Shown here piece after piece: positions 1,905 through 14,224 of a DNA stretch of 64,000 nt (positions are counted from its first letter, which is position 1; every line of letters begins with the position of its first letter). The stretch is from Deltaproteobacteria bacterium (lineage in GTDB: Bacteria > Desulfobacterota > GWC2-55-46 > DRQE01): positions 2,959 to 66,958 of the forward strand of contig WGEY01000088.1 of assembly GCA_015492495.1 (NCBI GenBank), written 5' to 3'. The translations under genes were made by a program, and so were the position numbers. The notes under the pieces are model-generated. The model had not been told where the DNA came from. It did not search any database and saw only the letters and a list, made by a program, of their open reading frames with translations.

Positions 1905-4900
1905 ATGCCAAAACGTACTGACATAAGAAGGATCCTTCTCATCGGCTCAGGCCCCATCGTCATAGGCCAGGCATGCGAGTTCGACTACTCCGGCACCCAG
2001 GCCTGCAAGGCCCTTAAGGAGGACGGCTACGAGGTCGTGCTCGTCAACTCGAACCCCGCGACCATCATGACCGACCCAGACTTCGCGGACAGGACCTATG
2101 TCGAGCCCATCACCCCGGAGATGGTCGAGAGGATAATCGAACGCGAGAGACCTGATGCACTCCTTCCGACCATGGGCGGGCAGACCGCGTTGAACGTATC
2201 CGTGGCCCTCGCCGAACGGGGCGTGCTCGAAAGGCACGGGGTGGAGCTCATAGGTGCCAGCATAGAGGCCATAAAGAAGGCAGAGGACAGGGAGCAGTTC
2301 AGGCAGGCCATGTGGAAGATCGGGCTCGAGGTCCCGGGCAGCGGTGTGGCCAGGACCCTTGACGAGGCGAACGAGCTTGTTAAACGCTTCAACTACCCGG
2401 TCATCCTCCGGCCCTCCTTCACCCTCGGCGGAACCGGCGGCGGGATAGCCTACAACCGAGAGGAGTTCGAGGAGCTCGTGCGCCACGGGCTCGATGCAAG
2501 CCCCACCAGTGAGGTCCTCATCGAGGAGTCCGTCATCGGCTGGAAGGAGTACGAGCTCGAGGTGATGCGCGACAAGTTGGACAACGTCGTCATCATCTGC
2601 TCCATAGAGAACTTAGACCCCATGGGGGTGCACACAGGCGACTCCATAACCGTGGCCCCGGCCCAGACACTCACGGACAAGGAGTACCAGCTGATGAGGG
2701 ACGCGGCACTCAGGATAATCCGCGAGATAGGGGTGGACACCGGCGGCTCGAACATCCAGTTCTCGGTAAACCCGAGGAACGGAAGGATGTACGTCATAGA
2801 GATGAACCCCAGGGTGTCGAGGAGTTCGGCCCTTGCGAGCAAGGCCACCGGTTTTCCCATAGCCAAGATAGCGGCGAAGCTCGCCGTGGGGTACACGCTC
2901 GACGAGATACCCAACGACATAACCAGAAAGACCCCGGCATGCTTCGAGCCCACGATAGACTACGTGGTCACGAAGATCCCGCGCTTTGCATTCGAAAAAT
3001 TTCCGAAGGCAGACCCCACGCTCACCACCCAGATGAAGTCCGTGGGCGAGGTCATGAGCATAGGAAGGACCTTCAAGGAGTCCCTTCACAAGGCGCTCCG
3101 CTCCCTCGAGACCGGCTCCTCGGGCTTCGAGCGGGTGGTGCTGCAGAGGTCACGGGTGGGGACGTTACATGCACCGACGGATGTGGAGAAGGACGCCATC
3201 CTGTCGTGGCTCAAGACCCCCAGGGCCGAGAGGATATATTACATCGCAGAGGCCATGCGTGCCGGCATCGACGTGGCGAAGATCCATGAACTCACTGGGA
3301 TAGATCCCTGGTTTCTGAACAACATAAAGGAGATCGTGGACCTCGAAGCAAGGATAGTCGAGGCATCCGCAAGCGGCGGACTTTCTTCCGAGCTACTGCG
3401 GAACGCCAAGGAGTGGGGCTTTTCGTACGAGATGCTGAGCGCCCTCACTGGAGACGATGTGGAGGTGCTCGTAAAGAGGGGCTCTGAGGCCGGTATCGAG
3501 CCGGTGTACAAGTGCGTGGATACCTGTGCAGCGGAGTTCGAGGCGTACACGCCGTACCTGTATTCGACCTACGAGCGCCCCTTCTACAACATAACAACCG
3601 GGCGGTCGAGGAGGGCCGAGTGCGAGTCTGCGCCTACCGGCAACAGAAAGGTCATTATACTTGGAAGCGGCCCCAACCGGATAGGCCAGGGCATAGAGTT
3701 CGACTACTGCTGCGTACACGCAAGCTTTGCCCTAAGGGAGGAGGGGTTCGAGTCCATAATGGTGAACTGCAACCCGGAGACGGTCTCAACGGACTACGAC
3801 ACATCCGACAGGCTCTACTTCGAGCCCCTTACCTTCGAGGACGTGATGGCGATAGTCGAAAGGGAGAGGCCCTACGGTGTCATCGTCCAGCTCGGGGGAC
3901 AGACCCCCCTCAAGCTCTCCGTGCCCCTTGAGAGGGCCGGGGTCAGGATACTGGGCACACCGCCGGATTCCATCGACATCGCCGAGGACAGGGAACGCTT
4001 CGACGGGCTGCTCGATAGGCTCGGGCTCAAGAGACCGGAGAGCGGTATCGCCCGCAGCATAGACGAGGCGGTAAGTGTCGCAGGCGGTATCGGCTATCCG
4101 GTCATGGTAAGGCCCTCATACGTGCTCGGCGGAAGGGCCATGGAGATAGTCTACGACGAACCAAGCCTCATAGGCTACATGAGCAGGGCAGTGGAGGCCT
4201 CGCCCGAACACCCGGTGCTCATAGACAGGTTCCTCGAGGGCGCGGCGGAGGTGGATGTTGACTGCATAAGCGACGGCGGGGTGGTCGTCATAGGCGGCAT
4301 AATGGAGCACATAGAAGAGGCTGGCGTTCATTCGGGGGATTCGGCCTGTTCGCTTCCGCCTTATTCGCTCGGGGCAGATGTTCTTGACGAGATAAGGCGA
4401 CAGACGAGAGAGCTTGCCAGGGAACTCGGTGTCGTGGGGCTCATGAACGTACAGTTCGCCATAAAGGACGGTACGGTCTACATACTGGAGGTGAACCCGA
4501 GGGCGTCACGCACCATACCGTTCGTGAGCAAGGCCATCGGCAGGCCGCTTGCAAAGCTTGCGACAAAGCTCATGGTCGGAAGGACGCTCGAGGAGTTGGG
4601 TGTGACCGAGGAGGCGAAGCCCTCATACATCTCGGTCAAGGAGGCCGTTTTTCCGTTCATCAAGTTTCCCGGGGTGGACACCCTCCTCGGCCCCGAGATG
4701 AAGTCAACCGGAGAGGTCATGGGAATCGGCATGGACTTCGGAAGGGCCTTTGCAAAGGCGCAGATAGCAGCCGGCAACACCCTGCCGCTTGAGGGATGTG
4801 TCTTCATAAGCGTAAGGGACGAGGACAAGGCCGCGGTCGAGGGGGTTGCAAGGGAGCTCAAGGAGATGGGCTTCAGTATATTAGCTACAAAGGGGACCGC

Positions 4901-5216
4901 TCGCTACCTGACGCAAAGGGGGATCGAGGCCGAGATGGTGTACAAGGTCATCGAGGGGATGCGTCCCCATGTGGTGGACAGGATAAAGAGCAACGAGATC
5001 TCCATGGTCATAAACACATCCTTCGGCGCAAAGAGCGTGGAGGACTCCTACTCCATAAGACGGACCTCGGTGGAGATGGGGATTCCGTACTTTACCACGA
5101 TCGCCGGTGCGCACGCAGCCACATGCGCCATAAAGGCGATAAAGAAGGAAGGGCTTGCGGTGAGGACCCTCCAGGAGTACCATGCCGGGGAGGCCGCCCT
5201 TCCAGGGACCGGATGA
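1905..5216 (+). CDS. carB: carbamoyl-phosphate synthase large subunit
   Basis: 1103 aa with two ATP-grasp halves (duplicated ...[10 protein letters not shown]... / ...[10 protein letters not shown]...) and a C-terminal MGS-like domain. Canonical CarB length. Confidence 0.97.
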
Positions 5217-5251
5217 GCCGCCAACACCGCAGTCCCGCCCTTTTCCGGTAT

Positions 5252-7720
5252 ATGCAGACCCGCGTGCAGGAACAGCTTTTCCGTATCATAGACTCCATTG
5301 AAAAACCGGTGAACTTCGCCTCGAGGGACGGTTTTGCCCGTATTTCGAGCATAAGGGGGCTCGAGTCCCTGGTTGTGTCCCTGTGTGAGGAGGCATCGGG
5401 GACCGGTCTGCCCGGGGCGGTGTTGCGAAGCCTCGATGAACTGAAGTCGCTTTTCGAGGGGTTCGACGGCCTCCCGGTCGAGGTGAAAAAGGAACGCATC
5501 CGGAGGGCCGGGGAGATACTGGCATTGCTGAGGAATGTCTCGGCGTACAGCGGCGAGGACCGAAATAGTATTCGTGTTCCACCGGTCTCCGAGGTCCTGG
5601 ACAGGCTCGGAAGGCTCTCCACCCCGCTCCGGTACGTAAAGGGTGTGGGGCCGAAGCTTGCCGAGAGGTTTAAGCACAAGGGGCTTTCCACGGTCGAGGA
5701 CCTGCTCTACTTCCTCCCGATCCGCTACGAGGACCGCCGTTTCATGAAGAGGATATCCGATCTGGAGCCAGGCAGGCCCCAGGCAGGCACCGGTGAGGTG
5801 CTGGCCTCCTCTGAGGTGAGGTACGGAAGGCGCAGGGTCTTCGAGGCGGTGGTCTCGGACGGCTCGGGTCTTTTGAGGTTGAAGTGGTTCAACTACAGGC
5901 TTCCGTACATGAAAAAGAGATACACACCCGGCCAGAGGCTCACCTTCTACGGGACGGTCTCCGTCTTCGCACACCGCAAGGAGATGGTGCATCCCGACGT
6001 AGAGCTCCTTGAAGCCTGCGGTGAAGATGAGGAGACAGCCCGCCAGGCTGAAGGTATAGTGCCCGTTTATTCGCAGGTAGAGAACTTTCACCAGAAGACC
6101 GTAAGGGGGCTTGTTCACCGGATAGTCGAGGGTTACGCCTCCGTTGCACCGGGCTGCGTGCCGGAGGAGGTCCTTGAGCGGTGCGGATTCATCCCCCTTA
6201 AAGATGCCTTTTTCGGCGTCCACACCCCCGGGGACACCTCCTCGGTGGAGCTTGCAAGAAAGAGCCTCGTATTCGACGAGCTCTTCTCCCTCGAACTCGG
6301 TCTCGCGCTCAGGAGGAGGGGGATAAAGAGGGAGAGCGGTCTTGCGATGGACGGTGCCGGTAGGCTCTGTAAGAGGTTCCTTGAGATGCTACCCTTCGAT
6401 CTCACCGGTGCCCAGAAGAGGGTCGTGGAGGAGATAAGGAAGGACATGGCCTCACCGCACCCGATGAACAGGCTTATACAGGGGGATGTTGGCAGCGGAA
6501 AGACGGTGGTCGCCTTTATGGCCGTTCTTCTGGCCGTGGAGTCGGGCTTCCAGGCGGCTATTATGGCACCCACTGAGATACTTGCGGAGCAGCATTTTCT
6601 TACGACCCGTTCGTATTGCGAGGCGTTGGGTATTGAGTCCGCCTTGCTCACGGGCGCCATGACGAAGTCCGAGAGGGAGAGGACGCTCCGTTCGGTGGGA
6701 GAGGGGGGCGTGGACCTTGTCATAGGCACGCACGCGCTCATCCAGAAGGGGGTGGCGTTCAGGAGGCTCGGGCTGGCGGTCATAGACGAGCAGCACCGCT
6801 TCGGCGTGGTGCAGAGGAGCGAGCTCAGGAAAAAGGGTACCGTGGGGGAAGAAGGTGGGCTGGGCGGTGTATCGCCCGACATCCTGGTCATGACGGCCAC
6901 CCCCATACCGAGGACGCTTTCGATGACCGTCTTCGGTGACCTGGACGTGTCCGTCATAGACGAGCTCCCCAGGGGAAGGAGGCCGGTCGAGACCCGGATA
7001 CTGAGGGAGAAGGACAGGGAAGAGGCGTACAGGATCATCCGCGACGAGGTAAGGGCAGGGGGGCAGGCCTATATCGTGTACCCGCTCGTCGAGGAGAGCG
7101 AGGAGCTGAGCCTGAGGGACGCCACCAACATGAAGGAGCACCTCGAAAGGGATGTCTTCGCAGACTTCAGGCTGGCCCTTCTCCACGGTAGGATGAAGTC
7201 CGCGGAGAAGGAGGCCGTGATGAAGGCGTTCAAGGCGGGCGAGGTCGACATACTGGTTTCGACCACCGTTGTGGAGGTGGGCGTTGACGTGCCGAATGCA
7301 ACGCTTATACTCATAGAGCACGCAGAGAGGTTCGGTCTTGCTCAGCTTCACCAGCTAAGGGGCAGGGTCGGCAGGGGCTCGAAGAGGTCCCTTTGTCTTC
7401 TCCTTGCCCAGTATACGCAGAGCGATCTTACGTGGAGGCGTCTAAAGGTCCTCGAACAGACCATGGACGGCTTCAGGATAGCCGAGGAGGATCTAAGGAT
7501 AAGGGGACCGGGTGACTTCATGGGAACACGACAATGGGGTATGCCCGCGCTCAGGATGCAGGATGCCCTGGCCGACCTACAGCTCCTCAAGATGGCAAGG
7601 GATGAGGCCTTCCGTTTCCTGGAGAGGGATCCGGAACTGTCTACAGCCGAGGGGCAGGCCATCAAGGCGGTGCTCAGGGCCAGGTGGAACGACAGGCTGG
7701 AGCTTGCCGAGGTGGGGTAG
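5252..7720 (+). CDS. recG: ATP-dependent DNA helicase RecG
   Basis: The six-frame ORF 4796-7720 runs back into carB. The first in-frame ATG after the carB stop is 5252 (MQTRVQEQLF...). Supporting motifs: wedge-domain region LRYVKGVGPKLAERFKHKGLSTVEDLLYFLPIRYEDRR, Walker A GDVGSGKT, DEQHRFGV, helicase C motifs, and the C-terminal RecG TRG region (QLHQLRGRVGRG). Confidence 0.9.
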   Translation: MQTRVQEQLFRIIDSIEKPVNFASRDGFARISSIRGLESLVVSLCEEASGTGLPGAVLRSLDELKSLFEGFDGLPVEVKKERIRRAGEILALLRNVSAYSGEDRNSIRVPPVSEVLDRLGRLSTPLRYVKGVGPKLAERFKHKGLSTVEDLLYFLPIRYEDRRFMKRISDLEPGRPQAGTGEVLASSEVRYGRRRVFEAVVSDGSGLLRLKWFNYRLPYMKKRYTPGQRLTFYGTVSVFAHRKEMVHPDVELLEACGEDEETARQAEGIVPVYSQVENFHQKTVRGLVHRIVEGYASVAPGCVPEEVLERCGFIPLKDAFFGVHTPGDTSSVELARKSLVFDELFSLELGLALRRRGIKRESGLAMDGAGRLCKRFLEMLPFDLTGAQKRVVEEIRKDMASPHPMNRLIQGDVGSGKTVVAFMAVLLAVESGFQAAIMAPTEILAEQHFLTTRSYCEALGIESALLTGAMTKSERERTLRSVGEGGVDLVIGTHALIQKGVAFRRLGLAVIDEQHRFGVVQRSELRKKGTVGEEGGLGGVSPDILVMTATPIPRTLSMTVFGDLDVSVIDELPRGRRPVETRILREKDREEAYRIIRDEVRAGGQAYIVYPLVEESEELSLRDATNMKEHLERDVFADFRLALLHGRMKSAEKEAVMKAFKAGEVDILVSTTVVEVGVDVPNATLILIEHAERFGLAQLHQLRGRVGRGSKRSLCLLLAQYTQSDLTWRRLKVLEQTMDGFRIAEEDLRIRGPGDFMGTRQWGMPALRMQDALADLQLLKMARDEAFRFLERDPELSTAEGQAIKAVLRARWNDRLELAEVG

Positions 7721-7928: not shown

Positions 7929-8008
7929 GATCAGTGATTATTGAAGGATATGGGCGCATGCTCCCTGAATGACACGGTTTGCATGCAGAATTTGTTTATT
8001 CATCTTTA

Positions 8009-9070
8009 ATGGAGGGTGTAAAGGTGGCCGTTAAGACCAAAGGGACGAGAGGAAAGGGTAAGGGTGGAGGCAAGGGAGATGACAGGAAGAGGTTGCTTTC
8101 TAGGCTCTTCCATATCAAGAGGGAGCTGGAGCCACTTCTATGGAAGCTGCCGTGCATACAGGGGGTGGGGGTGGGTTACAAGTATACAGGCGGAAGGATG
8201 ACGAGGCAGCCCGCCATAATCGTCTTCGTGGCGAGAAAGGTTCCGGCCAGGTTCCTGGCGGTCTCCGGGATAGTGCCGGCAAAGCTCGTCATACCGGATC
8301 CCATGGAGGACGGAAAACCAATGGAGGTCGTAACGGATGTCTTCGAGTCCGGCTACTACTCGGTTCATTCATACACCTCAAAGCACAGGCCGGCCCACGG
8401 CGGTGACAGCATAGGACACATCGATGTGACCGCCGGCACATACGGTTGTGTTGTGCAGGATATGCAGGCCCTCAGGCAGGAGGACAGGATGGAGATGGTC
8501 ATACTGAGCAACAACCATGTGCTGGCAAACAGCAACAACGCCTCCCCAGGGGATCCCATCCTGCAACCCGGACCTTATGACGGGGGCACGATAAGGGATA
8601 AGATAGGCGTGCTCAAACGTTTCGTCCCGATCAGTTTTTCCAAGGACGAGTGCAACTACGTGGATGCGGCCATCGCAACCGCGGAGTGCGGCGACATGTC
8701 GTTCGACATACACGATGTCGGCGGTATCACAGGTTCCTACAACGTAGGTATAGGGGACCTCGGCAAGGAGGTTCAGAAGACCGGCAGAACGACGGGGCAC
8801 ACGACCGGAAGGATCATTGCGATCGACGCCACCGTCAGCGTCAACTACGGCGGTGGACTCAAGAAGAAGATAGCGAGGTTCTGCAGGCAGATACTGACGA
8901 CCGACATGTCGGAACCCGGTGACTCGGGCTCGGCCGGCATGACCATGGACGGCAAGGTCTTCGGACTCCTTTTCGCCGGCAGCGACCGGCAGACCATCTA
9001 CAACAGGATCGAGCTTGTTGAGAGTGCCCTTGAAGTAAAGGTCGTACCCGGCAATGGCACGGTCTGCTGA
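8009..9070 (+). CDS. hypothetical protein with C-terminal trypsin-like (S1 family) serine-peptidase features and an uncharacterised N-terminal domain
   Basis: ORF 7979-9070. Probable start is ATG 8009, or GTG 8024 preceded by GGAGGG. Shows an NNHVLAN (His region) and GDSGSAG...GLLFAGSD (GDSG-type catalytic Ser region) arrangement typical of chymotrypsin-fold peptidases. The N-terminal about 80 aa (..CIQGVGVGYKYTGGRMTRQPAIIVFVARKV..) is not a known domain to me. Confidence 0.55.
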   Translation: MEGVKVAVKTKGTRGKGKGGGKGDDRKRLLSRLFHIKRELEPLLWKLPCIQGVGVGYKYTGGRMTRQPAIIVFVARKVPARFLAVSGIVPAKLVIPDPMEDGKPMEVVTDVFESGYYSVHSYTSKHRPAHGGDSIGHIDVTAGTYGCVVQDMQALRQEDRMEMVILSNNHVLANSNNASPGDPILQPGPYDGGTIRDKIGVLKRFVPISFSKDECNYVDAAIATAECGDMSFDIHDVGGITGSYNVGIGDLGKEVQKTGRTTGHTTGRIIAIDATVSVNYGGGLKKKIARFCRQILTTDMSEPGDSGSAGMTMDGKVFGLLFAGSDRQTIYNRIELVESALEVKVVPGNGTVC

Positions 9071-9076
9071 GGTGTT

Positions 9077-9322
9077 CTAACGCGCGTGGAACTCACCTGA
9101 CTCCTGCACATCCACGCCCACGCCGTCAAGCTCCTTGGGGATGAGATCCCCGGCCTTAAGGTGTGCAGGATCCACCTTCTTTTTCACGTAGACCACGATA
9201 CACCTCTCGTCGGTGTATTCACCCTCTCTCTCCCGCAGCCCCACGGCGACACCTGTCACATTCGGGTATGACAGGAGCATGGATTCGTACTTCTCCTTTA
9301 TCTTTGATATGTCCCGGCCCAT
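9077..9322 (-). CDS. small protein (81 aa) homologous to the N-terminal domain of the adjacent protease-like protein
   Basis: MGRDISKIKEKYESMLLSYPNVTGVAVGLREREGEYTDERCIVVYVKKKVDPAHLKAGDLIPKEL..ESG aligns with KRELEPLLWKLPCIQGVGVGYKYTGGRMTRQPAIIVFVARKVPARFLAVSGIVPAKL..ESG of ORF 8009-9070. It has its own RBS (TGGAGGT) and its own promoter. Confidence 0.5.
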   Translation of the reverse strand: MGRDISKIKEKYESMLLSYPNVTGVAVGLREREGEYTDERCIVVYVKKKVDPAHLKAGDLIPKELDGVGVDVQESGEFHAR

Positions 9323-9336
9323 TTTGTTATACCTCC

Positions 9337-9365
9337 AATTTATGCCACTAGTGTGGATTTGTCAA
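9337..9365 (-). promoter_or_regulatory. sigma70-type promoter (TTGACA - 17 nt - TAAATT) for the 81-aa gene
   Basis: On the minus strand: TTGACAaatccacactagtggcaTAAATT, followed by the RBS TGGAGGT and the ATG at 9322. Confidence 0.45.
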
Positions 9366-9522: not shown

Positions 9523-10947
9523 ATGTCGAAGCGTAAGACGCACGGGCTGAGCTTCCGTCATAGTGTCGACCGCATGGTCGACCGTGCCATAGAGGTTGTA
9601 GGCCTCGAGCCCGGGCTGGCTGACGCCATAAAGGGCTGTAACGCGGTCATAATGGTTCGGTTCCCGGTCGAGATCAAGGGCAAAATAGAGGTGTTTACGG
9701 GCTGGCGGGCTACTCACAGCATACATCGCCTCCCGGCAAAAGGAGGCATCCGTTACGCCACGACGGTGGACCAGAACGAGGTCGAGGCCCTGGCGGCGCT
9801 CATGACATACAAGTGCGCCATAGTCGATGTGCCTTTCGGAGGCTCCAAGGGCGGGTTGCATATAGACCCGCGCAAGTATACCAGGAGCGAGATGCAGCGC
9901 ATCACCCGGCGTTTCGCCAGGGAACTTGCGACAAGGGGGTTCTTGAGCCCTGCCACAAATGTGCCTGCACCCGACATGGGCACGGGTCAGCGCGAGATGG
10001 CCTGGATAACCGACACGTACAAGCACCTCTACCCGGAGGACATAAACTACTTTGCATGTGTTACCGGCAAACCCGTGCACATGGGCGGCATCCGCGGACG
10101 CGTGGAGGCGACCGGTCGGGGGGTACAGTACTCATTGCGGGAGTTCTTCCGCCACCCAGAGGATGTCAGGGCGGCCGGCCTGAGCGGGGGGCTCGGCGGA
10201 AAGCGCATAATCGTTCAGGGGCTCGGAAATGTGGGATACCATGCAGCCAAGTTCCTCTCGGAGGAAGACGGTGCCAGGATCGTCGCCATAGTGGAGCGTG
10301 ACGGGGCGATCGTCGACGAGAGAGGACTTCCTGTGGATGAGGTCAAGCAGTTCATGCTCGAAAACGGCGGTGTGAAGGGCTTTCCCGGTGCCGTGTACGT
10401 GGAGGACGGTGCCGGGGTCCTGGAGATGGAGTGTGATATACTCGTTCCGGCGGCGCTCGAGGGTGTGATACATAAGGAAAACGCCCCGCGCATCAAGGCG
10501 AGGCTAATAGCGGAGGCGGCAAACGGCCCCACGACATTCGACGCCGACATGCTCTTGAACGAGCGCGGTGTGGTGATCCTGCCGGATGCCTATGTCAATG
10601 CAGGGGGCGTGGTCGTATCGTACTTCGAGTGGGTGCGAAACCTCAACCACATCCGCTTCAGGCGCATGGAGCGAAGGCTCGAAGAGCGCCGCGGGCAGCA
10701 CATCATAAACGCCCTTCAGGAGGCCACCGGCAGGGATCTCCCCGAGTGGGTAATAAACGAGTTGACCCACGGAGCGGATGAGCTCGATCTCGTGCGCTCC
10801 GGCCTCGACGACACCATGCGGCTCGCCTACCAGCACATCCGTGAGCTCAAGGCATCGAACCCGAAGGTTACCGACTACCGTACCGCTGCGTACGTCATAG
10901 CCATAGAGAAGATAGCGCGCTCCTACCTGGATACAGGGGTATACTGA
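9523..10947 (+). CDS. gdh: glutamate dehydrogenase (Glu/Leu/Phe/Val dehydrogenase family)
   Basis: 474 aa. Catalytic-Lys motif KCAIVDVPFGGSKGG and a Rossmann GLGNVG motif. RBS AGGAGA upstream of the ATG. Confidence 0.9.
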   Translation: MSKRKTHGLSFRHSVDRMVDRAIEVVGLEPGLADAIKGCNAVIMVRFPVEIKGKIEVFTGWRATHSIHRLPAKGGIRYATTVDQNEVEALAALMTYKCAIVDVPFGGSKGGLHIDPRKYTRSEMQRITRRFARELATRGFLSPATNVPAPDMGTGQREMAWITDTYKHLYPEDINYFACVTGKPVHMGGIRGRVEATGRGVQYSLREFFRHPEDVRAAGLSGGLGGKRIIVQGLGNVGYHAAKFLSEEDGARIVAIVERDGAIVDERGLPVDEVKQFMLENGGVKGFPGAVYVEDGAGVLEMECDILVPAALEGVIHKENAPRIKARLIAEAANGPTTFDADMLLNERGVVILPDAYVNAGGVVVSYFEWVRNLNHIRFRRMERRLEERRGQHIINALQEATGRDLPEWVINELTHGADELDLVRSGLDDTMRLAYQHIRELKASNPKVTDYRTAAYVIAIEKIARSYLDTGVY

Positions 10948-11076: not shown

Positions 11077-13779
11077 CTATCCCGTCGTATTACCTTCGAT
11101 GAGCTCTCTTACGGCCCTCAGCAGATCCGTCAACGTGTATGGTTTCTGCAAGAAGCGAAACCCCTTTTCGCGTATAAGCTCCAGTTGCGACTTCCGTCCC
11201 GTGTAGCCGCTTGTCAAGAGCACCCGGAGATCCGGCTTGCTGGAGAGGAGCCTGTTGACCAGTTGAACGCCGTTTTCATCTGGCAGGACGACGTCGCTGC
11301 AGACAAGGTGGATCCGGTCCTTTTCCCTTTCGAATGTGTCCATGGCCTCCTTGGCGTTCGTTGTCTCAAATACGGTGTAGCCGTTTTTGCGGAGCAGCGA
11401 CGCGCACGACCTGAGCACGATCTCTTCGTCCTCCACCAGAAGAATCCGCTCTCCTTTCCCGTTGAGCTCCTCTTTGGGGATGTCCCTTGTCTTGTGTTCG
11501 CTCCTTTCCATTGCACGGCAGGCGGGCAGGTAGACCTTGAAGGATGTACCTTTTCCTTCTTCACTCTGAACATTGATCCAACCTTCGTGCTGTTTGACGA
11601 TGCCATAGACCACGGCAAGCCCCAGCCCGGTGCCCTTTCCGACATCCTTTGTGGTGAAGAACGGCTCGAAGATGTGCTGGATGACATCCTTGTCCATGCC
11701 TTCACCGGTGTCCTCGACGGTGAGGCAGACAAAGCTCCCCGGCCGTGAATAGGGTATCAGCCTGCTTGAGGCTTCATCGATGACAACATTTTCCGTCCTG
11801 ATGGTAAGTATACCGCCGTGCTGCATGGCATCGCGTGCGTTTATGGCGAGGTTCATCACAACCTGCTCGATTTGGGCAGGGTCGATCTTCACCCTCGGCA
11901 GATCGGCCGCGAGCTCGGTTGCAAGCTCGATGTCCTCGCCTATGAGACGTAAAAGGAGCTTTTTTATGTCCGTGACGAGGTCGTTGATATCAAGCACCTT
12001 TGTCTGGAGCACCTGCCTGCGGCTGAAGGCCAGGAGTTGACGCGTAAGCGATGCAGCCCTCTCTGCGGACTTTCTGATCTCTTCAACGTTTTTGCGTAGC
12101 CGTTCTTGGTCGCCGAAGCTGTCCAGGACGAGCTCTGAGTATCCCATTATCGCTGTTAGCAGGTTGTTGAAGTCATGTGCAACTCCACCTGAGAGCTTTC
12201 CGATGGCCTCCATCTTCTGTGCCTGGAGCAGCTGGATCTGGAGCCGCTTTTTCTCTTCCTCATAGAGTTTTTTCTGTGTAACGTCTTCCTTGAGTGCGAC
12301 AAAGTGAGTGATGGTTCCATCTGCGTCGGTTATCGGTGAAATACACGTATGCTCCCAGTAAAGCTCGCCGTTCTTTTTCCTGTTGTAAAGCTCTCCGGTC
12401 CATACGCCGCCGGATGTGATCGTCTTCCACAGCTCTCTGTAGAACTCCGGCGGGTGGTGGGAGGACTTGAGGAACCGCGGATTCCTTCCTATGACCTCTT
12501 CGCAGGCGTAGCCGGTCAGCTCCGTGAACCTTGGGTTGACGTATTCGATGTTACCCCTGGTGTCCGTGATGATGACGCTGCTCGGGCTCTGTTCCACCGC
12601 GTGAAAGAGCTTGCGAAGCTGCTCCTCGGTCTTCTTGCGCCCGGTGACGTCTGTGTAGAATTCTATGCGTCCACCGGCATATAGCCCGGACCTGATCGGC
12701 TGGCTCCAGTGCTCGAGATGCCGCTCCTTGCGTTCGCCTTCGGGCAGCACATGGCACTCGAAGCTCCTTATGGATGTATTGTCCTCGTATGTCTCCAGTA
12801 TCCTCTCTGCAAAAGCTTCGGGTTCCTCGAAGATATACTTTATCCGTTCGCGGACGAGCCGCCTGTTGTCCATTCCGATGATATCTTCTCTTCTCAGGCC
12901 GAAGAACTGTTCAAGGGCCAGGTTCAGCCAGACGATCCGGAACCCTGAGTCGAGTATGACGATACCCACTCCGGAGCTGTCGAGGACATCGTTTGTCAGT
13001 GAACGGTGCTTTGCTTCACTCTCCTGTAGCGCCCTCTCGGCTCGTTTGCGGTCAGTGATGTCGCGCCATATGCACCTGCAGAACGATACGTTTCCATGTT
13101 CATCACGCACCGCCGATACCTTCAGGCTCACGTCTATCCTGCTACCGTCTTTTCTTTTCAATTGCAACTCGGCATTATCTGCCTCGTCCGTCTCGACGAA
13201 CAGGAGGCCGTCCTTTCCCGGATCCTCGACACATTCCATATGGTATATGTCCGAGACTGGGCGGCCTACGAGCTCGTCCTTGCTGTAGCCCAGCGTTGCG
13301 GCCAGCGTCTGGTTGCACTGAATGATCTTTCCGGTCCTGGCGTCAACTGATCCGAACATATCAGGGGCGTAGTCATACAGGTCCTGGTACTCCCTTTTGG
13401 ACCTTCTCAGTTCACGCTCCCTTTTTTCCAGGGCATCGACCTTTTCGGAAGCAGCCCGCACATTCGAGTAGAGCAGCGCCGAAAGGGCGAAGACTATGAA
13501 AGTAATGCTGTTTATGCCTCCGCTGACGGGTGAGAGCGCATGCCACACATCGGGATACCCGGCGGTCATGAGCACCCTTTTGACTATGTGTGCAACCGAA
13601 CGGGAGATAGCGAAGACGGCGAGGGCAAGCGTCTGGGCGTAGAGGAAAGTATAGAGGGCGGTATAGCGTCTCTTCCTGTAGATCTCCTTCATGAGCCTTA
13701 CACCGTAAATGCTCATGAGGATCATGGTTGACGAGCCGAGGACGTCTATCAGCCATACCAAGGACATCGGCGCCTGCAT
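11077..13779 (-). CDS. hybrid sensor histidine kinase / response regulator (N-terminal TM segments, multiple PAS domains, HisKA, HATPase_c, C-terminal receiver)
   Basis: The long ORF 11077-14040 was trimmed to the ATG at 13779, which has a strong RBS (AGAAGGAGGAGCCGTGATG). H-box AHDFNNLLTAIMGYSEL; G-boxes (DTGEGM, GTGLGLAVV); receiver ILLVEDEEIVL...LVCSDVVLPDENG. Confidence 0.85.
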   Translation of the reverse strand: MQAPMSLVWLIDVLGSSTMILMSIYGVRLMKEIYRKRRYTALYTFLYAQTLALAVFAISRSVAHIVKRVLMTAGYPDVWHALSPVSGGINSITFIVFALSALLYSNVRAASEKVDALEKRERELRRSKREYQDLYDYAPDMFGSVDARTGKIIQCNQTLAATLGYSKDELVGRPVSDIYHMECVEDPGKDGLLFVETDEADNAELQLKRKDGSRIDVSLKVSAVRDEHGNVSFCRCIWRDITDRKRAERALQESEAKHRSLTNDVLDSSGVGIVILDSGFRIVWLNLALEQFFGLRREDIIGMDNRRLVRERIKYIFEEPEAFAERILETYEDNTSIRSFECHVLPEGERKERHLEHWSQPIRSGLYAGGRIEFYTDVTGRKKTEEQLRKLFHAVEQSPSSVIITDTRGNIEYVNPRFTELTGYACEEVIGRNPRFLKSSHHPPEFYRELWKTITSGGVWTGELYNRKKNGELYWEHTCISPITDADGTITHFVALKEDVTQKKLYEEEKKRLQIQLLQAQKMEAIGKLSGGVAHDFNNLLTAIMGYSELVLDSFGDQERLRKNVEEIRKSAERAASLTRQLLAFSRRQVLQTKVLDINDLVTDIKKLLLRLIGEDIELATELAADLPRVKIDPAQIEQVVMNLAINARDAMQHGGILTIRTENVVIDEASSRLIPYSRPGSFVCLTVEDTGEGMDKDVIQHIFEPFFTTKDVGKGTGLGLAVVYGIVKQHEGWINVQSEEGKGTSFKVYLPACRAMERSEHKTRDIPKEELNGKGERILLVEDEEIVLRSCASLLRKNGYTVFETTNAKEAMDTFEREKDRIHLVCSDVVLPDENGVQLVNRLLSSKPDLRVLLTSGYTGRKSQLELIREKGFRFLQKPYTLTDLLRAVRELIEGNTTG

Positions 13780-14224
13780 CACGGCTCCTCCTTCTCGTCC
13801 TTGAACGACTTTATCCCCATGACAAAGGCCGCCATCGCACCGACCGAGAGGAAGTGATCGAGGATCTTGCCCGCATAGAACACCTTCGCAATCAATGTGG
13901 ATATGTCGATCTTCTGGGTCCATGCACGCACGGAGCCGGAAAAGAACTCGGGCGATAGCGGTTCTCTTATCCAGTGGACCGTAAATGTATCGATGTTCCA
14001 TAGAAGGAACAGGAAGGCCGCTATGCCGATGAACCTCCACCCCGGGGCAGCGTTGGGACCCGCTTTATCTGTATGAAAAGGACGGCCATGGAAAACATGA
14101 AGAAGAGGTGGGCGATCTGATGGGTGTAGAGCCCCTCTGGATCTGCATGTTCCTGGGTAGCCAACGCATCCGGACAGGCTATCAATATCAACAGGACGAC
14201 GACGGGAATAACCTTTTTAAGCAC
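13779..14224 (-). pseudogene. small polytopic membrane protein gene with an apparent 1-nt frameshift in a C4G4 homopolymer; translationally coupled (TGATG) to the sensor kinase
   Basis: Frame A (GTG 14224 with RBS GGAAG; MLKKVIPVVVLLILIAC...HQIAHLFFMFSMAVLFIQIKRVPTLPRG) stops at 14021. Frame B continues protein-like (WRFIGIAAFLFLLWNIDTF...FLSVGAMAAFVMGIKSFKDEKEEP*) to a TGA overlapping the kinase ATG. Inserting one nt in ccccgggg (14041-14048) fuses them into a protein of about 148 aa and 4 TM segments. Confidence 0.35.

Follow-up and report, generated by a model that had tools for sequence, protein, structure and literature searches.

A stretch of 64,000 nucleotides from contig WGEY01000088.1 of a Deltaproteobacteria bacterium (assembly GCA_015492495.1; this whole stretch is referred to below as the window) carries a gene for a NAL1-like S1 serine protease and, tail-to-tail with it, a gene for an 81-aa protein that consists of a single NAL1_N domain. 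With moderate confidence, we propose that the product of the small gene acts in trans as a dedicated partner subunit of its neighbor, regulating the assembly or the activity of the protease. Both open reading frames (ORFs) lie where an initial annotation, made from the DNA alone, had placed them: the protease ORF on the plus strand from 7979 to 9070 (363 aa when read from a TTG), and the small ORF on the minus strand from 9077 to 9322, with 6 nt between the two stop codons. NAL1 is an agronomically important rice protease; descriptions of its unusual ATP-binding N-domain and of its cage assembly date only from 2023–2025, and the large bacterial NAL1-like family is unstudied. The locus in the window is an ordinary member of that family with a clade-specific inversion, and the interest lies in the family-wide pattern of a second NAL1_N domain, which gives a testable handle on assembly or control and offers a likely role for the widespread “hypothetical proteins” of about 85 aa.

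The homology between the small protein and the N-terminal domain of its neighbor, which the initial annotation had recognized, is clear in formal comparisons. In pairwise BLASTP, small-protein residues 8–78 align with positions 46–127 of the 363-aa ORF (E=1e-9; 33% identity across some 80 residues), and among all six-frame ORFs of the window each of the two proteins finds only the other (phmmer, E 8e-6 and 2e-6). Both pass the gathering score of 27 bits for the Pfam family PF25608 (NAL1_N), the small protein with 38.6 bits (E=9.4e-10) and the protease with 40.3, and a profile of 110 stand-alone family members matches NAL1 chains in the Protein Data Bank (PDB) at E=2e-7. The fold of the small protein is confidently predicted as an N-terminal helix on a four-stranded sheet, and it superposes on NAL1 residues about 95–172. 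NCBIfam has no model for either protein.

In rice NAL1, amino acids 89–172 form the “ATP-binding domain” (ABD), in which ATP-Mg is held by R120, R122, K123, K139, V140, Q149, L151, D166, and V167; contacts between the ABD and the protease domain (SPD) of a neighboring subunit build the trimer, and the K139A variant aggregates and loses its activity (PMC12012508). The small protein of the window keeps equivalents of six of these positions (R30, R32, K49, V50, D71, and V72) and has E33 where NAL1 has K123. K49 and D71, which correspond to NAL1 K139 and D166, are invariant in 110 of 110 stand-alone proteins, and the position of R120 is Arg or Lys in just 56 of them. In the N-domains of the proteases, the same Lys and Asp (K77 and D110 in the window) are invariant in 119 of 119 homologs, and the R120 equivalent is Lys or Arg in all.

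A second conserved element is the C-terminus. Of the 110 stand-alone proteins, 79 terminate four to five residues past an invariant Gly with an x-Phe-x-Ala(-x) tail, with Phe present in 87 and Ala in 80, so that the signature of the small gene is a hairpin followed by the terminal motif V-x-V-x-[ED]-x-G-x-[IF]-x-A. The motif G-x-[I/F]-x-A also closes the N-domain of the protease itself. In the isolated stand-alone protein this tail is predicted to be disordered, and because it is conserved though unstructured in isolation, it may make a contact in a complex. An idea linking the x-F-x-A tail to the cleavage specificity of NAL1 was unsupported, since the reported sites are only at His residues.

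The neighboring gene encodes an S1-like serine protease, as had been noted initially, and the match to NAL1 extends over the full length of the protein. A sequence search of the PDB finds rice NAL1 at E=4e-8 and the streptogrisin-type entry 2sfa at 5e-4, and the AlphaFold2 (AF2) model, with a predicted local distance difference test score (pLDDT) of 89, gives full-length Foldseek matches to the NAL1 structures 8pmg, 8pmm, and 7y77 at E about 1e-18, followed by streptogrisin B and alpha-lytic protease at E about 1e-10. The catalytic triad (H170, D219, and S306, the last in GDSGS) is invariant across an alignment of 119 sequences, and more than 7,300 homologs of the protease were found. Its N-domain is the equivalent of the rice NAL1 ABD at residues 89–172, and in the AF2 model it comprises a helix at residues 22–44 and strands at 50–60, 63–74, 92–96, and 104–113. 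For the start codon, the alternative to the ATG preferred here is a GTG at 8024, which lies 7 nt after GGAGGG, would give 348 aa, and is the start called in orthologous contigs. Close orthologs have 334–337 aa vs 353 aa in the window, and a Lys/Gly-rich tail probably accounts for the ~15–20 extra residues; residues 1–20 have a pLDDT below 50 in the AF2 model. The region corresponding to NAL1 residues 1–88 has no counterpart in the window protease, where just this disordered 20-residue tail precedes the domain. A possible loss of NAL1 beta-strand 11 in the bacterial enzyme was considered and dropped, the alignment being ambiguous there. Because no signal peptide is evident by eye in either the protease or the 81-aa protein, the system is probably cytoplasmic.

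The small gene is a real and constrained gene. Eight clusters of orthologs in metagenome-assembled genomes (MAGs) of Nitrospirota and Acidobacteriota are intact and 57–99% identical. The nonsynonymous differences (pN) amount to 0.10–0.29 per site against synonymous differences (pS) of 0.70–1.0; we compared pN with pS because the synonymous sites are saturated for a formal dN/dS. The gene is thus under purifying selection. On a wider scale, a search of 1.84 billion representative proteins with the stand-alone profile returned 4,021 matches at E<=1e-3, and about 100 of the best 150 matches are stand-alone proteins of 82–146 aa. The other architectures in the best 150 are N-domain/protease, N-domain/N-domain/protease, N-domain/protease/N-domain, and tandem proteins with N-domains only. 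The stand-alone family comprises hundreds of clusters, every named member of which is annotated as “hypothetical protein”. The top match of this search, a protein of 2135 aa matched in 21 stretches (P0129), is a MucBP repeat protein and was set aside as a false positive.

The initial annotation took the small ORF for a copy of the neighbor’s own domain, and on this point our comparisons lead elsewhere. Stand-alone domains share a mean identity of 47% among themselves and 48% with domains fused to the C-terminus of proteases, vs 37–38% with the N-domains of proteases, their own neighbor’s included (33% in the window). The nearest neighbor of each of 82 stand-alone domains examined is another stand-alone or C-terminal-fused domain, and a neighbor-joining bipartition places 81 of 87 stand-alone and C-terminal-fused domains together with only 2 of 81 others. 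The stand-alone profile aligns best to the extra C-terminal domain of some proteases (hhalign probability 99.9, E=2e-32), and 14 of the 120 closest protease homologs have the order N-domain/protease/N-domain, with flexible linkers of Ala, Gly, Ser, and Pro. Since identities, clades, and profile match all group it with these domains, the small protein belongs to an old second domain type (hereafter S-type, as opposed to the N-type of the proteases) that is either fused C-terminally to the protease or encoded separately, an ancient paralogous lineage rather than a local duplicate. Some proteins carry two to four NAL1_N domains in tandem and no protease domain (P0130, P0132, P0134, P0150, P0165, and P0242), others have the order N-domain/N-domain/protease (P0133, P0136, P0026, and P0089), and judging from these architectures NAL1_N behaves as a mobile, repeatable module.

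The pairing of the two genes is widely conserved, as the initial annotation had thought worth checking. We scanned one genome per species and recovered 80 loci, mostly from Chloroflexota, toward which the search pattern used (DG[VI]xVDVQE, from the scan alignment A4 of 27 sequences) is biased. The protease lies directly upstream of the small gene on the same strand at 51 loci and downstream of it on the same strand at four; the two are fused in one ORF at three loci and convergent at one. At 12 loci the small gene stands alone, with flanks of 1.5 kb or more to either side, and at nine the flank is too short to decide the arrangement. The protease thus adjoins the stand-alone gene in 59 of 71 interpretable genomes (83%). 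Many of the same-strand pairs have an ORF-to-ORF distance of 4 nt or overlap, and because the genes are so close they are probably co-transcribed. A search for a conserved third gene among the loci found none, the largest remaining clusters being shadow ORFs on the antisense strand or the result of lineage synteny. For roughly one third of the same-strand pairs, the small ORF shares the frame of the protease, with a single stop codon between them (L012, L023, L024, L032, L037, L040, and about 11 more loci); this frequency is what chance predicts for short spacers, read-through is not needed to explain it, and such pairs show how easily fused forms could arise.

The bias toward Chloroflexota is partly offset by six protease-centered look-ups in other groups, in all six of which a small S-type-like gene lies beside the protease. 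Four of these are clear (a second look-up in the window’s own clade, Desulfofervidus, an alphaproteobacterium, and Catelliglobosispora, the last being a motif-level match at E=5e-5), and two are weak, namely Amycolatopsis (E=5e-4) and a lipoprotein-like case (L100, E=0.03). In the actinobacteria Catelliglobosispora and Amycolatopsis orientalis, the NAL1-like proteases are followed by overlapping ORFs of 66–73 aa (L094:4971-5171 and L098:4062-4283); these ORFs resemble minimal S-type domains that lack the invariant Lys loop, and they are not recognized by Pfam. The lipoprotein-like case (L100:4211-4498) is a 95-aa protein downstream of a NAL1-like protease, with a lipoprotein-type signal peptide, MKSLLLILITLSLVNC, and the faint S-type pattern scored above; this pair may be a secreted variant of the protease/small-protein pair.

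The convergent, independently promoted layout emphasized by the initial annotation is true of the clade to which the window belongs and does not describe the family, in which the genes are mostly on one strand and sometimes fused. The convergent pair recurs in five related lineages (L002/3, L005/6, L007-9, L010, and L090-93) in at least four different flanking contexts, with stop-to-stop gaps of 6–8 nt in L002, L005, and L007 and of 42 nt in L090. Convergence is thus a rearrangement specific to a Nitrospirota-like clade, the common layout being protease followed by small gene on one strand. No hairpin or bidirectional terminator was found at the junction in the window: folding of 9020–9130 is no more stable than shuffled sequence (z = +1.0 and +1.4 for the two strands), and the one terminator-like site is weak and lies inside the 3' end of the protease gene.

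The topology of the window requires the small gene to have its own promoter, since it converges on the protease gene and diverges from a glutamate dehydrogenase gene that begins at 9523. The promoter reported initially, TTGACA-17-TAAATT, is indeed present, though as a match it is no better than chance, with one promoter-like site found in the region vs 1.2 expected from shuffles, and no conserved promoter was seen upstream of the orthologous small genes, whose upstream regions do not align well. The ribosome-binding site named with it also exists, as GGAGGT 8 nt before the ATG. The -10 hexamer (9342-9337), however, directly abuts that sequence (9336-9331), and a transcript from this promoter would probably begin 3' of the Shine-Dalgarno sequence. 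Promoter and ribosome-binding site as first described therefore cannot both work in the way supposed.

How the proposed partner might act can be outlined from these observations. The genes stay adjacent while their order varies, they have fused repeatedly, and in NAL1 the domain docks between subunits; from these three facts we infer that the small protein binds in trans to the protease domain, as the fused C-terminal S-type copies must do in cis. Once docked, it would modulate the assembly, gating, or activity of an oligomeric protease, either to inhibit or to activate it. Candidate elements for the contact or for a ligand site are the Lys and Asp that hold ATP-Mg in NAL1 and the C-terminal G-x-Phe-x-Ala tail. 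In most bacteria the partner gene immediately follows the protease gene on one strand; in the Nitrospirota-like clade, an inversion has made it convergent at a distance of 6 nt, so that it must use a promoter of its own. With no terminator separating the convergent genes, transcription of each probably runs on into the other, and the ratio of partner to protease would then be uncoupled. The inversion and the missing terminator imply that in the convergent clade the two genes are controlled separately and perhaps interfere with each other’s transcription.

Several observations weigh against a dedicated partner subunit. In 12 of the 71 interpretable genomes (Thermoflexus and others), the small gene has no protease within 1.5–5 kb, and an Acidobacteriota locus (L001) likewise has a small gene and no nearby protease. 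In a Nitrospirae MAG (L004, JACROP010000105), the small gene is intact (L004:3814-4074) and the protease is reduced to a 40-aa remnant. Judging by these cases, the small protein may also function where no protease gene lies beside it, or may target a protease encoded at another place in the genome. Tandem proteins made of NAL1_N domains only exist as well, and the short actinobacterial versions lack the otherwise invariant Lys, so ligand binding is not universal. Same-strand adjacency and the co-transcription deduced from it, furthermore, fit a protective inhibitor as well as they fit a structural subunit. The remnant in L004 (L004:4092-4247, minus strand) retains the ~40 last residues at 82% identity and is directly convergent to the small gene, with a 117-aa coiled-coil-like ORF in place of the rest of the protease; the arrangement reflects either a deletion of recent date or a chimeric assembly.

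One competing explanation makes the small protein an inhibitor or foldase that works in trans in the manner of a pro-domain. It would bind as the alpha-lytic pro region or the streptococcal inhibitor Spi does, with its x-Phe-x-Ala tail lying product-like in the active-site cleft, and would silence the protease or aid its folding. The closest solved folds after NAL1 are alpha-lytic protease and the streptogrisins, which depend on N-terminal pro regions; the C-terminus of the small protein is tightly fixed (79 of 110) and its G-x-[I/F]-x-A motif recurs at the end of the protease N-domain; and the genes for Spi and the staphostatins are juxtaposed to, and co-transcribed with, those for their proteases (PMC2873492). 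Against this, neither protein matches any Pfam pro-domain family even at E<=1, and no pro region in the PDB matches the stand-alone family profile at E<=10. The initial annotation spoke of an N-terminal or pro-domain, the latter of which the comparisons do not establish; the domain is the NAL1_N or “ATP-binding” domain, which stays in the assembled, mature rice enzyme and forms the trimer interface; moreover, the reported NAL1 cleavage sites are at His residues and not at Ala (PMC12012508). We regard an inhibitor or foldase as unlikely on balance. A dominant-negative decoy, also raised by the initial annotation, seems very unlikely to us. Here the free domain would compete with the protease N-domain for the inter-subunit surface, breaking or preventing trimers and turning the enzyme off; the NAL1 trimer is indeed built through the ABD–SPD interface, and the enzyme needs higher-order assembly to be active (PMC12012508), and independent convergent transcription, as in the window’s clade, would suit an antagonist. 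The stand-alone and N-terminal types, though, are distinct clades that separated anciently, and a simple contest for one site is hard to square with their joint presence in fused polypeptides (14 of 120 relatives) and in neighboring genes on one strand.

The cases of small genes without a protease, including the one that survives beside a deleted protease, would be accounted for if the protein were an independent small ligand-binding protein, for instance one that binds nucleotides, with adjacency reflecting shared ancestry or regulation only. The invariant equivalents of the ATP-site Lys and Asp and the existence of tandem NAL1_N-only proteins agree with such a function, to which we nevertheless give little credence: adjacency of 83% across phyla, varying gene order, and repeated fusion together are a strong signal of coupling, the R120 equivalent is lost in about 40% of stand-alone proteins, and the actinobacterial versions are without the Lys. 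A spurious ORF or decaying duplicate can be dismissed with near certainty. The gene is short and functionally unannotated everywhere, but the 57–99% identity of orthologs in several phyla, the invariant motifs, pN far below pS, hundreds of family clusters, and a confident fold prediction are at odds with this reading, and the conservation data already refute it.

Our preferred reading, a dedicated trans-acting partner of the protease, differs from what is described for NAL1 and from the known protease–partner systems. NAL1 is a single polypeptide for which no free ABD partner has been described, and the bacterial system adds a second paralog of the domain, separate or C-terminally fused; in the plant enzyme, the N-terminal region (aa 1–88) mediates formation of a hexamer, with beta-strand 1 (aa 48–53) bridging two trimers, and this region is the one that the window protease lacks. 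The initial annotation knew of no characterized precedent for such an architecture, yet conceptual ones exist. In Streptococcus pyogenes, Spi is a free-standing propeptide analog, a small protein whose gene lies beside that of the protease SpeB and whose sequence is homologous to the SpeB N-terminal region (PMC2873492). SpeB is a cysteine protease vs the serine protease here. Spi inhibits SpeB and mimics a propeptide that is cleaved off, but NAL1 keeps its NAL1_N domain as a structural part of the enzyme. The genes for Spi and SpeB are transcribed together and those of the window’s clade converge, although the tiny gaps and overlaps on the same strand in Chloroflexota relatives suggest co-transcription there. 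The alpha-lytic and streptogrisin pro regions, which act within one molecule as chaperones and inhibitors of S1E proteases, find no support from sequence or Foldseek as relatives of the small protein, and the structural support for the analogy is weak; they are not normally separate genes, unlike the small gene here. In the staphopain–staphostatin and Bacteroides Bfp–Bfi operons, a protease is likewise paired with a small cognate protein, an arrangement believed to shield the cell that makes them (PMC2873492). Those proteases are secreted cysteine proteases, and staphostatins, which are lipocalin-like, have no relationship with any domain of the protease that they accompany.

Pfam NAL1_N, NAL1-like S1 proteases, and, as a concept, a free-standing N-terminal homolog beside its protease (SpeB–Spi) are thus already known. 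We found no literature on bacterial NAL1 homologs or on stand-alone NAL1_N proteins, and as far as we found it has not been described that bacterial NAL1-like proteases usually carry a second ABD paralog, separate or fused. A bolder proposal, which we consider doubtful, is that bacterial NAL1-like proteases are generally two-component, with a separate NAL1_N-type domain as a near-universal regulatory subunit that either plugs the active site with its G-x-Phe-x-Ala tail or couples cage assembly to nucleotide through the Lys/Asp site. If true, this would define an undescribed class of protease regulators and would explain the origin of the “ATP-binding domain” of plant NAL1.

Features of the window at and around the protease/small-gene pair (positions in the window; catalytic residues numbered from ATG 8009)
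Feature	Position	Strand	Remarks
RecG helicase	4796-7720	+	Flanking gene
NAL1-like S1 serine protease gene	8009..9070	+	353 aa from ATG 8009, preferred to TTG 7979
Lys/Gly-rich N-terminal tail of protease, KTKGTRGKGKGGGKGDDRKR	8033..8092	+	Predicted disordered; not a signal peptide
N-type NAL1_N domain of protease	8072..8347	+	Helix and four beta-strands; Pfam PF25608, E=2.6e-10
Chymotrypsin-fold serine protease domain	8387..9067	+	Foldseek fold match
Catalytic His170	8516-8518	+
Catalytic Asp219	8663-8665	+
Catalytic Ser306	8924-8926	+
Spacer between convergent stop codons	9071..9076		6 nt; too short to hold a terminator
Stand-alone S-type NAL1_N domain protein	9077-9322	-	81 aa from ATG
GGAGGT Shine-Dalgarno-like sequence	9331..9336	-	8 nt before ATG; read from sequence
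Promoter-like TTGACA-17-TAAATT	9337..9365	-	10/12 consensus positions
Glu/Leu/Phe/Val dehydrogenase	9523-10947	+	Flanking gene
Large ORF	11077-14040	-	Translation reads like a PAS-domain histidine kinase with receiver domain

The genes that flank the pair are housekeeping or signaling genes, and nothing in them suggests a mobile element or a defense island. The RecG ORF, with 974 aa, starts well upstream of the conserved part, and its true start is probably later. In the related Hainich groundwater contigs, a toxin-antitoxin-like pair of a HEPN protein and a minimal nucleotidyltransferase (MNT) lies about 1.2 kb from the protease/small-gene pair (L090:6593-7340, minus strand), to which it is probably unrelated.

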